Below are positions 4,715 through 7,464 of a stretch of 20,000 nt of DNA, piece by piece. The position numbers and the translations under genes are program-made. Each line of letters opens with the position of its first letter. Position 1 is the stretch's first letter. The notes under the pieces were generated by a model. The model ran no database searches. It saw only the letters and a program-made list of their open reading frames with translations, and was not told the DNA's origin. The DNA lies in the sequence record SRR20825019_235; one strand, given 5' to 3'.

Positions 4715-5398
4715 ATGAAAAAGCGAATCCTTATTGTTGAAGACGAAGTTTTTATAGCGGAAGAGCTTTCATGTATAGTCCAAGAACTTGGCTACGACAT
4801 TACGGACATTGCCTATGATACAAAAAGTGCAATTAATTCGTTAACTCTACAACAACCAGATTTGGCTATTTTAGACATTCGAATGCACGGCAAAAATCAA
4901 GGATTCGAAATCGCCAAATACATCAATGAAAATCTAGACATTCCTTTTCTGTTTTTAACGTCTTTCGCAGACAAAGGTACTGTTGAAGAAGCTTCCTTGC
5001 TGAAGCCAAACGCCTATATTCTGAAACCATTCAATAATCTGGATATTTATTCAACTCTTGCAATCGTTTTTGAATCGTTTGAGAAGAAAACAAAGAAAAT
5101 TGCTCTTAAAGTAGGTCAGAATTCGACACTTTTTGATGCAAAGGAAATTTTATGGATTAAGTCCGATGATAATTACATTGAAGTCAATACAAAAGACAAG
5201 CGATATGTCGTTAGAGCAACTATTGATGGATTTCTCGAAGAGTATGGACTTTCTCAGTTTGTTCGAGTACATCGATCGTATGCAGTGAATCCAAGTAATA
5301 TAGAAACGTTGACTTCAAATCAACTGACGATTAACGGAATAGAAATACCCGTGTCTAGAAAGCACATCCACGAGCTGAGAGGTCTTTTTCACTCGTAA
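4715..5398 (+). CDS. Response regulator (REC + LytTR)
   Basis: ILIVEDE, PDLAILDIRMHG, FLTS, YILKPF; LytTR motifs FVRVHRSYAVN and IPVSR. Confidence 0.94.
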   Translation: MKKRILIVEDEVFIAEELSCIVQELGYDITDIAYDTKSAINSLTLQQPDLAILDIRMHGKNQGFEIAKYINENLDIPFLFLTSFADKGTVEEASLLKPNAYILKPFNNLDIYSTLAIVFESFEKKTKKIALKVGQNSTLFDAKEILWIKSDDNYIEVNTKDKRYVVRATIDGFLEEYGLSQFVRVHRSYAVNPSNIETLTSNQLTINGIEIPVSRKHIHELRGLFHS

Positions 5399-5575: not shown

Positions 5576-6049
5576 ATGAAGAACATGAAAAAAGGTCCAT
5601 TTGTGCTCTTTTTTGCTCTTACATCGCTTCATGTTTTAGGACAAGAAGTTGTGTCTACACAAGGTGATTCTTACACGAATGGCAGTGGAAGTATTGCCTT
5701 TACAATCGGTGAAGTAGTTATTAATACGGGAACTGATGGAACAAATGATATTACCCAAGGTTTTCATCAAACCAATTGGAGTTTTTTAGGAGTGATTGAT
5801 TATTCACCAAACTACGAAGCTACAGTTTTCCCAAATCCAGTTGCTGAAACGTTGAACATCAAGACAAACAGTTTTGAAAACGTGTCTTACTTGCTTTATG
5901 ACGAGCAGGGGAGACTTGTACTCCAGGACAAACTCTCTGCAGAAATTACTTCGATTCAAGTAAGTCAACTCGCACCTGGAAGCTATTCTGTTGTATTGAA
6001 TAAAGAGTCAAAAAAACTCAAAACATTTAAACTAGTTAAAACTCATTAG
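5576..6049 (+). CDS. Small T9SS type A sorting domain (Por_Secre_tail) protein
   Basis: Signal peptide ending VLG-Q; short N-domain (GSIAFTIGEVVI...ITQGFHQ); CTD motifs VFPNPV, YDEQGRLV, LAPGSY and KTFKLVK. The start could be ATG 5585. Confidence 0.9.
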   Translation: MKNMKKGPFVLFFALTSLHVLGQEVVSTQGDSYTNGSGSIAFTIGEVVINTGTDGTNDITQGFHQTNWSFLGVIDYSPNYEATVFPNPVAETLNIKTNSFENVSYLLYDEQGRLVLQDKLSAEITSIQVSQLAPGSYSVVLNKESKKLKTFKLVKTH

Positions 6050-6095
6050 AAAGAATTGCTCGGTAATCATAAACTCCCTAAAAAACAAATAAGTT

Positions 6096-7400
6096 ATGTA
6101 TAAAAGAATTTTACTCTCACTCGTTGCGATTGCAACAATCACAGCATCCGCTTTCGGACAAGTACCAGAAGGTTTTAAATATCAAGCAGTTGTTAGAAAT
6201 TCAGGAAATGTCATTTTAAATAACCAGGCAATTGGAATGCAAATAGAAATACTCCAAGGAGGAATTTCGGGAACAGCAGTTTACACAGAGTCATTCGCTC
6301 CAACAACAAATGATTACGGGTTGGTTAACTTGGAAATTGGAACAGGTTCAACTTCAGATAATTTCTCCGCAATTGATTGGGCGAATGATAGCTACTTTAT
6401 TCGTACTTCGATCGACGTTACTGGCGGTTCTTCGTATGTAGTTATGGGAACAAATCAATTAATGAGTGTGCCTTATGCTTTGCATGCAAAAACAGCTGAA
6501 AGTGTAATAAATGACTTAGTGAATGATGCAGACGCTGATCCAGCGAATGAAATCCAAAATTTGTCACTAACAGGTAATATCTTAACAATTACAAACAATG
6601 GAGCTGCAACTTTAATTGATCTTTCGGCTTATTTAGACGATACGGATACACAATTAAGTGAGGCGCAAGTGGATGCAATGGTCGCAAACAACGGGTATAT
6701 CACAAATCCAGATGATGCCGATGCCGATCCAGCGAATGAAATTCAAGATTTGTCTTTAACTGGAAATATCTTAACAATTACGAACAATGGAGCCGCAACT
6801 TCAATTGATCTTTCGGTTTATTTAGACAATACGGATACACAATTAAATGAGGCGCAAGTGGATGCGATGGTAGCAAACAACGGTTACATCACAAGTCCAA
6901 ATGACGCGGATTCTGACCCAACCAATGAAATTCAAAATATTTCTTTGTCAGGAACTAATTTGACACTTTCTAGTGGAGCAACAATTGATCTTTCCGGAAT
7001 TGATACAGACACAGATACGCACATTGATTCTATTGGCATAGCCGGTTTAGGTTTTGTTGCTGGATCGCATAAAATGGTAGATTATTCTTATTCTGAGCAG
7101 GCAACTGGTCGTTTCTGGGTAGATGGTAGTGAAATTTATACTCAAACGTTTATTAGATCAGGAACCGCTTATCCAAACTGGACCGTACCAACTTCTCCAC
7201 AGATGGCTAGAATTGTGAATGTCGAATATATGTTGATCTCCAATATTCCATTCCCGAATAGTAGAACATACAATAGCTATCATGCTTATGTAACTTGGGA
7301 CAATCCAGGATCTCCAGGGTATATTGTAATGACATCCGCAGATGGAAGCACACTGGTACAAGCTGGTACCACACTTACGATTTACTATACTAAACTATAG
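6096..7400 (+). CDS. Exported fibre/adhesin-like repeat protein
   Basis: Signal peptide AFG-Q; conserved Bacteroidota N-domain (GFKYQAVVRN...TNDYGLVNLEIGTG...IDW...SVPYALHAKTA); acidic tandem repeats; C-terminal head starting YSYSEQATGRFWVDGSEIYTQTF; no T9SS CTD. Confidence 0.82.
   Translation: MYKRILLSLVAIATITASAFGQVPEGFKYQAVVRNSGNVILNNQAIGMQIEILQGGISGTAVYTESFAPTTNDYGLVNLEIGTGSTSDNFSAIDWANDSYFIRTSIDVTGGSSYVVMGTNQLMSVPYALHAKTAESVINDLVNDADADPANEIQNLSLTGNILTITNNGAATLIDLSAYLDDTDTQLSEAQVDAMVANNGYITNPDDADADPANEIQDLSLTGNILTITNNGAATSIDLSVYLDNTDTQLNEAQVDAMVANNGYITSPNDADSDPTNEIQNISLSGTNLTLSSGATIDLSGIDTDTDTHIDSIGIAGLGFVAGSHKMVDYSYSEQATGRFWVDGSEIYTQTFIRSGTAYPNWTVPTSPQMARIVNVEYMLISNIPFPNSRTYNSYHAYVTWDNPGSPGYIVMTSADGSTLVQAGTTLTIYYTKL
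6525..7020 (+). repeat. Intragenic tandem repeat, 189 bp (63 aa) x2 plus a diverged partial third copy
   Basis: Units start at 6525, 6714 and 6903: DADADPANEIQ(N/D)LSLTGNILTITNNGAAT(L/S)IDLS(A/V)YLD(D/N)TDTQL(S/N)EAQVDAMVANNGYIT(N/S)P. The end of the third copy is approximate. Confidence 0.95.
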
Positions 7401-7428: not shown

Positions 7429-7464
7429 GAAACCTTTTCTAGAATTTAGTCTAGAAAAGGTTTC
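7429..7464 (+). terminator. Intrinsic terminator-like hairpin
   Basis: Perfect 15-bp stem GAAACCTTTTCTAGA / TCTAGAAAAGGTTTC with a 6-nt loop, 28 nt after the fibre stop, followed by TCTT. Confidence 0.8.

Follow-up and report, generated by a model that had tools for sequence, protein, structure and literature searches.

A minimal type IX secretion cargo gene paired with the gene of a MAT-like fibre in Bacteroidota: a possible adaptor for fibre export or anchoring

Within a stretch of 20,000 nucleotides from sequence record SRR20825019_235 (hereafter the window), two neighbouring genes on the plus strand raise the question of how a large fibre might reach the bacterial surface without a secretion tag of its own. 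The first gene (5576..6049) encodes a protein of 157 aa that looks like a type IX secretion system (T9SS) cargo reduced to a minimum, namely a signal peptide, a short conserved region and a type A C-terminal sorting domain (CTD). The second (6096..7400) encodes a fibre-like protein of 434 aa without a CTD, and a sequence-only reading of the window had correctly placed it 46 nt behind the first, across an intergenic spacer at 6050..6095. That reading had further proposed that the small protein, which we call the partner, carries or anchors the fibre through the T9SS, and had described the pair as recurring in Bacteroidota with variable fibre C-termini.

The recurrence is strongly confirmed by our genome comparisons, in which the gene pair appears as a cassette, phylum-wide in its occurrence, that combines a MAT-type fibre with a mini T9SS cargo. 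This recurrence suggests a role of the small protein in exporting or anchoring the fibre. A fuller reading, in which the two genes make up a self-contained cassette for a fibre on the cell surface and the partner serves as an in-trans T9SS adaptor that carries and tethers it, is the one we favour; it is plausible on the sequence comparisons, if short of probable.

Recurrence of the gene pair and its secretion signals

On the partner side, the small protein was searched against species-representative genomes, which yielded 79 loci. A fibre N-domain is encoded directly downstream on the same strand in 75 of them (75/77 of those with room downstream); of the remainder, L068 and L076 end at a contig edge, and L033 and L052 have other genes downstream. 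The gap between partner and fibre has a median of 10 nt and is at most 16 nt in 63/74 pairs, shorter than the spacer in the window, and would be compatible with co-translation of the two proteins in equal amounts. The fibres themselves vary widely in size, the 56 closed open reading frames (ORFs) of at least 200 aa in these canonical loci ranging from 280 to 1259 aa.

On the fibre side, a profile of the fibre N-domain was run over 401 Bacteroidota genomes drawn evenly from the phylum and found the domain in 83. For 40 of these 83 genomes, taken down the E-value list, we inspected the best-scoring fibre locus, and in 35 of the 40 a protein with the type A sorting domain PF18962 is encoded directly upstream, with gaps of -4 to 53 nt. 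Most of these upstream partners are 156-192 aa long, while two have 248 and 339 aa. PF18962 was confirmed by Pfam in 35 of the 39 upstream ORFs submitted, and the partner at L114 was recognised by our own CTD profile. As a background, 6 of 191 other flanking ORFs (>= 100 aa) match the CTD profile, the partners at L097 and L114 being among these six. Approximately 17 of the 40 fibre loci share both synteny and a 'KMLLIK' C-terminus, hence the 40 are not independent. Among the loci with no upstream partner, L097 has a CTD protein of 849 aa, encoded divergently on the opposite strand, which starts with the same motif as the partners, and L089 has a motif-bearing, partner-like ORF downstream; the upstream genes at L099, L103 and L116 are unrelated or unassignable. 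By these counts the pairing of partner and fibre genes is not due to chance. The two families thus proved mostly paired across Bacteroidota (75/79 partner loci; 35/40 phylum-wide fibre loci), as the sequence-only reading had indicated, and do not occur mostly independently.

The sorting signal is distributed between the two proteins in a strictly complementary manner. Our CTD profile matches none of 107 fibres (that of the window, 56 canonical ones and 50 from genome loci L080-L125), and PF18962 is absent from the precomputed Pfam annotation of the 120 fibre relatives listed. Conversely, among the best 150 representatives of the partner's conserved N-terminal region (the N-region), 116 are at least 140 aa long and 111 of these match the CTD profile; many of those inspected among the 34 shorter ones look truncated. 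The N-region peptide is almost always accompanied by a CTD, and the fibre has never been seen with one. This complementarity points to one product supplying what the other lacks.

The link to the T9SS itself was traced through SprA (TIGR04189), which scores above cut-off in 5/5 genomes with the canonical pair and in 312 of the 401 genomes sampled across the phylum. Every one of the 83 fibre-positive genomes has SprA, and the fibre occurs in none of the 89 genomes that are SprA-negative, where approximately 18 fibre-positive genomes would be expected under independence; the co-occurrence with sprA that had been proposed as a check is therefore present, with the reservation that phylogeny confounds it, since the 20 SprA-negative genomes listed are of small size and perhaps related to one another. 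A T9SS in the organism of the window would be expected from these relatives.

The arrangement of the cassette varies. The partner lies downstream of the fibre in L082, L128 and L129, and a single partner serves two tandem fibres in L087, L101, L107 and L127. Several distinct partner-fibre pairs can coexist within single genomes: in G212 all five fibres have their own partner, G368 has seven fibres and five partners with tandem fibres sharing one, and G148 has partners for three of its four fibres. Partners in G280 were missed by the profile, and a 148-aa CTD protein precedes the G280 fibre in L130.

Several loci show further departures, which we record as observations. In an Aquimarina isolate (L083:2088-6131) an OmpA-family outer-membrane barrel of 410 aa stands between a 179-aa CTD partner and a 751-aa fibre. 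Five tandem fibre genes (577-919 aa) with near-identical N-termini and C-terminal ends (...QQIKSLLLKK) make up an array at L126:4213-15405, and no motif-bearing partner was found within 18 kb of it. At L081:4238-8251 a collagen/DUF7151 fibre of 553 aa has no upstream partner; downstream of it lie three small exported proteins, paralogous to each other (136, 134 and 116 aa; no Pfam family), and a CTD protein of 390 aa, and this may be a different accessory set. At L033:651-3517 a canonical partner is followed, after an 11-nt gap, by a 788-aa protein with its own CTD-like C-terminus in place of the fibre, and then by a 122-aa DUF1566-like tip fragment; this locus looks rearranged. Lastly, the fibre frame of four canonical loci (L006, L031, L037 and L057) closes after 58-161 aa with separate fragments behind it, including tip-like ORFs ending in ...VRAVRAF or ...VRSVRSF. 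These broken frames may be pseudogenes, programmed variation or breaks in the assembly of metagenome-assembled genomes at the variable tips.

The two proteins and their relation to MAT fibres

The partner begins with what looks like a Sec signal peptide (residues 1-22, 5576..5641), in which inspection by eye finds a basic n-region, a hydrophobic core and a cleavage site between Gly and Gln, the sequence running MKNMKKGPFVLFFALTSLHVLG and then, after the cut, QEVV. The C-terminal part (residues 69-157, 5780..6046) is a type A T9SS CTD predicted to form a beta-sandwich. Pfam Por_Secre_tail (PF18962) matches residues 84-148 with E 3.3e-11 and 43.8 bits (cut-off 27), and the type A sorting domain TIGR04183 matches residues 84-155 with 40.6 bits (cut-off 23), so that both curated models for this domain score over their cut-offs. 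The description of the 157-aa protein as a signal peptide, a short region and a type A CTD was thus borne out, for the signal peptide as far as inspection goes. Two lysines of the CTD, K149 and K155, are invariant in 58 homologs. A conserved lysine of functional importance has been described for type A CTDs in the accessible part of PMC10994853, and an invariant lysine of the partner may be the same residue.

Between these two parts lies the N-region (residues 23-68, 5642..5779), the proposed docking peptide. No other part of the partner is conserved as well: within the canonical clade, mean pairwise identity reaches 0.79 in the N-region, against 0.66 in the CTD and 0.40 in the signal peptide. 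The motif reads QEVVSTQGDSY..GSI.FTIGEV..T..G.NDxTQGFHQTNW, with 16 invariant positions in 58 sequences, among them Q23, G45, E46 and Q61-W68. In the AlphaFold2 model of the partner, the N-region has a pLDDT of 40-50, and the protein rises above 90 from approximately residue 68 to 157. The sequence-only reading had spoken of a domain of roughly 50 aa; the conserved stretch is there, and since AlphaFold2 leaves residues 23-68 unfolded in isolation it is better called a conserved region than a proven domain. High constraint without an autonomous fold would fit a segment that folds on a binding partner, and the N-region, as modelled, would in this way fit a docking peptide.

The partner has 1400 relatives, mostly 153-157 aa long and ~70% identical. 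With a profile of the N-region, 8507 representative clusters are reached at E <= 1e-3, of which 483 remain at E <= 1e-10. The consensus of the region, [signal peptide]-Q-x(3-10)-S-x-G-x(5-8)-G-x-[IVLA]-x-[FYW]-[ST]-[IVLA]-G-[EQ]...Q-G-[FVL]-[QH]-Q, is still recognisable in partners only 9-30% identical to that of the window. At L084 the motif heads an fn3/cupredoxin/CTD protein of 1109 aa, and an S74 fibre of 1331 aa follows directly downstream. Judged by these occurrences, the N-region is portable as a module; when longer proteins with the canonical N-region were sought, one emerged, of 566 aa and with PF18962.

The fibre was said to be exported by Sec and to have neither a CTD, a lipobox nor a beta-barrel, and each of these statements stands. 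Its signal peptide contains no Cys, and thus there is no lipobox; no Pfam match to PF18962 or CHU_C (type A or B CTD) was obtained at E <= 0.1; and the AlphaFold2 monomer model contains no barrel. Gln is the first residue after the likely signal-peptidase site in both proteins of the pair (window 5639-5644 and 6156-6161) and is invariant in their relatives (Q23 of the partner, Q22 of the fibre). Conversion of such a +1 Gln into pyroglutamate is typical of exported Bacteroidota proteins.

The mature fibre starts with a beta-rich N-domain (residues 22-118, 6159..6449), modelled as a compact beta domain at residues 28-117 with a pLDDT of 84-93. It is followed by a near-invariant segment (residues 119-142, 6450..6521, beginning QLMSVPYALHAKTA) with an identity of 0.88 over residues 119-135, which is unfolded in the monomer model (pLDDT < 50) and may be a trimer neck or a contact site for the partner. 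The shaft (6522..6954) consists of 2.3 tandem copies of a 189-nt (63-aa) repeat (TRF: 85% matches, score 649), modelled as repeated units of three strands plus a helix, and a C-terminal beta domain (residues 319-434, 7050..7397; pLDDT 50-80) forms the variable tip. More than 3192 relatives of the fibre were found at E <= 1e-3 (best 8000 candidates scored). They are alike over the N-terminal 40-75% of the query, and of the 120 listed just 4 cover at least 96% of it. On the shared N-domain these relatives carry Lcl_C/DUF1566, PF26696, phage tail collar, Peptidase_S74 and other tips, in agreement with the variable C-termini described for the family. PF22484 (DUF6986) in the closest full-length relatives was set aside, being a short match within the repeats with no separate stretch over threshold.

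More distant paralogs of the fibre carry collagen triple helix, C1q/TNF, YadA head, phage spike and S74 modules. Collagen, C1q/TNF and S74 modules are obligately trimeric, and their presence in relatives is an indirect pointer, by analogy, to a homotrimeric fibre. Foldseek gave no match of the fibre model to the PDB at E <= 1e-3, and no fold was assigned. Weak tip similarities were seen to 6cxb (Foldseek, E 0.027) and, in a wide VIA-align search, to a phage P1 tail-baseplate chain (9ay5_Y; best Z 6.3), which is not decisive; all VIA-align matches lie below Z 8 and are of a generic beta-sandwich kind. The T9SS CTD 8qb1, which appeared as a fold match of the fibre N-domain at Z 4.8, was regarded as noise.

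What kind of fibre is this? Of the curated families, only NCBIfam NF053851 (Bdello_MAT_N, mosaic adhesive trimer family chimeric fiber protein) matches it, at residues 14-116/117 with E 5.6e-9 to 6.2e-10 and 36-39 bits (cut-off 60). All 92 aligned fibre N-domains match NF053851 at E <= 1e-3, the best at 8e-14, and besides this family the N-domain alignment gave two single chance-level matches. By these profile matches the fibre is homologous to the MAT fibres and, because the scores lie below the curated cut-off, belongs to a related family and not to the curated Bdellovibrio subfamily. The MAT fibres of Bdellovibrio bacteriovorus are described in the accessible part of PMC10769870 as having a signal peptide, a base domain of ~130 aa, a shaft and exchangeable tips, with S74 and non-S74 subfamilies. 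Our fibre resembles them in the beta-rich domain placed directly after the signal peptide (strands at 28-117, kept in >3192 relatives), and its relatives in their exchangeable S74 and non-S74 tips on a common base. It differs in that the host phylum has a T9SS, that a gene for a CTD-bearing partner accompanies the fibre, and that no link to predation is known for the fibre of the window.

Setting of the cassette in the window

The window also encodes two LytTR regulators, a His_kinase, an OMP_b-brl_3 barrel, a CBAH hydrolase, a TPR-HisKA_2 kinase and an LRR protein, and each of the four nearest neighbours of the cassette recurs in only 0 to 2 of the 79 related loci. A LytS-type His_kinase and a LytTR regulator form a pair, and there is a further LytTR response regulator, an orphan, whose end lies 177 nt upstream of the cassette (coordinates of these regulators: 305-1920 and 4715-5398). 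Because the orphan regulator is present in only 2 of the 79 loci, it is probably not dedicated to the cassette.

A perfect 15-bp hairpin (7429..7464, plus strand) lies 29 nt after the stop of the fibre gene, with a dG of -21.1 kcal/mol and a z of -5.5, and none of 200 shuffles was equally stable. It had been read as a terminator closing the two-gene unit; the strong hairpin is real, yet no T-tract follows it and a consensus terminator scan did not list it, and it is a strong hairpin and not a canonical intrinsic terminator.

In run X1, the whole stretch lies on one contig of 76.6 kb, which may be its source. A second, 107-kb contig of that run matches only window positions 6435-6469, a 35-nt piece at the end of the conserved fibre N-domain, and on this account the same sample probably holds at least one further fibre paralog.

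What the partner may do for the fibre

How could the partner act on the fibre? Sec would export the fibre, which has no T9SS signal of its own, to the periplasm, where the ~45-residue peptide of the partner would fold onto the fibre base domain. The partner CTD would then take the complex to the SprA/PorV translocon and, after CTD removal, the remaining short peptide would stay on the fibre base and tether the fibre to the cell surface. In this form, with a docking peptide on a minimal CTD cargo and a CTD-less trimeric fibre pulled through SprA already assembled and then tethered, T9SS export in trans is a possibility that we put forward tentatively. What the comparisons show is domain content, homology, conservation of the gene pair, the linkage of the N-region to a CTD and co-occurrence with SprA; binding, co-transport, tethering and trimer formation are our inferences.

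Known systems offer partial likenesses. The partner shares with ordinary type A cargo such as RemA a standard CTD over cut-offs and invariant lysines near the C-terminus (as far as the accessible text of PMC10994853 goes). It is unlike such cargo in that its passenger has only ~45 residues and does not fold by itself in the model, and in that the large functional protein is here a separate CTD-less polypeptide. In the same partly accessible source, substrates bind the translocon via their own CTD and a CTD-less fusion protein serves as a control. Closer in principle are Tat 'hitchhiker' co-export and peroxisomal piggyback import, in which the signal of one subunit targets a folded, signal-less partner (PMC9251779, in part). 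The machine and the membrane are others here, and a T9SS case is not described in the accessible part of PMC9251779.

Several points weigh against in-trans export. A homologous N-domain serves surface fibres in Bdellovibrio, which is not known to have a T9SS, so that the base domain does not need a T9SS as such. SprA would have to let through fibres that are already assembled, are up to 1340 aa long and have C1q or S74 heads. Our literature search returned no precedent for T9SS co-transport of a CTD-less protein: it gave no account of CTD-less T9SS cargo carried by a partner and none of MAT-like fibres in Bacteroidota, coverage being partial and the evidence weak. The co-occurrence with SprA is confounded by phylogeny. 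In a mirror-tree comparison, fibre N-domain distances correlate overall with those of the partner N-region at r 0.93 vs 0.92 for the partner CTD, and among 34 divergent pairs they follow the CTD better than the N-region; this result reflects co-inheritance only, with no co-evolution signal beyond it, and is uninformative on binding. Lastly, the fibres at L085, L099, L103 and L116 and the five-gene array at L126 have no partner nearby, and G172 has ten fibre matches but three partner matches.

The explanation that survives best beside in-trans export is that the partner is an anchor only, the T9SS secreting it alone while the fibre arrives by another route, as the MAT fibres of Bdellovibrio must, and docks its base on the exposed N-region. 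The evidence from adjacency, complementarity and conservation applies equally to this explanation, which also accommodates the N-domain family shared with Bdellovibrio (92/92 matches to NF053851), where no T9SS is known, and avoids sending long assembled trimers through SprA. Nevertheless, the cassette encodes no other outer-membrane route for a Sec-exported soluble trimer, and the genes beside it are not kept, each of the four in the window recurring in 0 to 2 of 79 loci. The tight coupling of 1-16 nt suggests that both proteins meet while being made, and the fibre is absent from all 89 SprA-negative genomes, though phylogeny confounds this count. We regard an anchor-only role as unlikely, if still deserving serious thought.

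A periplasmic assembly factor, whose N-region would bind protomers transiently, as a chaperone or in quality control, for the sake of trimerisation or to prevent early aggregation, before the partner is disposed of via the T9SS, is considerably harder to sustain. It would suit an N-region that is unfolded when modelled alone, the stoichiometric co-expression implied by short gaps, and those non-S74 fibres that are without a built-in S74 chaperone. However, S74 fibres, which have their own intramolecular chaperone, have partners too (L084), a chaperone has no obvious need of a T9SS CTD and yet 111/116 family members retain one, and the motif heads large multi-domain CTD proteins in L084 and L097, which is odd for a chaperone. 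We consider this role improbable.

We give equally little credence to the absence of any physical interaction, with the two genes yielding co-regulated but independent products such as a small secreted peptide with its own function and an adhesin. The mirror-tree test, with no specific signal, would agree with it, as would the lone fibres (L085, L126) and lone partners (L033, L052). Set against these are the strict CTD complementarity (0/107 fibres vs 111/116 N-region proteins) and the persistence of gene order and tight spacing at partner identities of 9-30% while the flanking genes change. Because order and spacing are kept across such deep divergence, which is hard to explain otherwise, a direct functional dependence of the two products is the better account.

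A prophage remnant, that is a tail fibre with its assembly protein, is very improbable indeed: relatives do carry tail collar, S74 and phage spike modules and the tip has weak structural matches to phage P1 and pyocin fibre chains, but both proteins appear to have signal peptides, the partner is itself cargo of the T9SS, the chromosomal surroundings of the cassette vary, neither protein matches a PHROGs family at E <= 0.01 and no phage genes were found in the 20-kb window. Membership of a phage tail fibre family is accordingly not seen for the fibre. The likeness to the fibres of phage tails and R-type pyocins, where adaptor or assembly proteins are separate, is one of design, since these too are modular, with swappable tips, and are trimeric, as ours may be; unlike them, the proteins of the window are Sec-exported and chromosomally encoded, and the partner bears the tag of a secretion system.

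If in-trans export through the T9SS is correct, its meaning would extend beyond this locus. T9SS targeting is understood as a signal in cis, and CTD-less fibres that need a separate mini-cargo would represent a new mode of substrate recruitment and a phylum-wide, modular display system of adaptor plus fibre. What the conserved base domain of MAT fibres binds is a point that their discoverers state as open, and the accessible part of PMC10769870 names neither a partner nor an anchor for the fibres of Bdellovibrio, nor is a MAT anchor named in that of a 2026 review (PMC13689555). The partner N-region would then be the first candidate for the surface element to which MAT fibre bases bind. The family is large, with >3192 fibre relatives, 8507 representative clusters of the N-region and fibres in 83 of 401 sampled genomes, and fibre-positive genomes often hold several copies with different tips. 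For these reasons the fibre family probably plays a major part in deciding what these abundant bacteria of water and soil adhere to.

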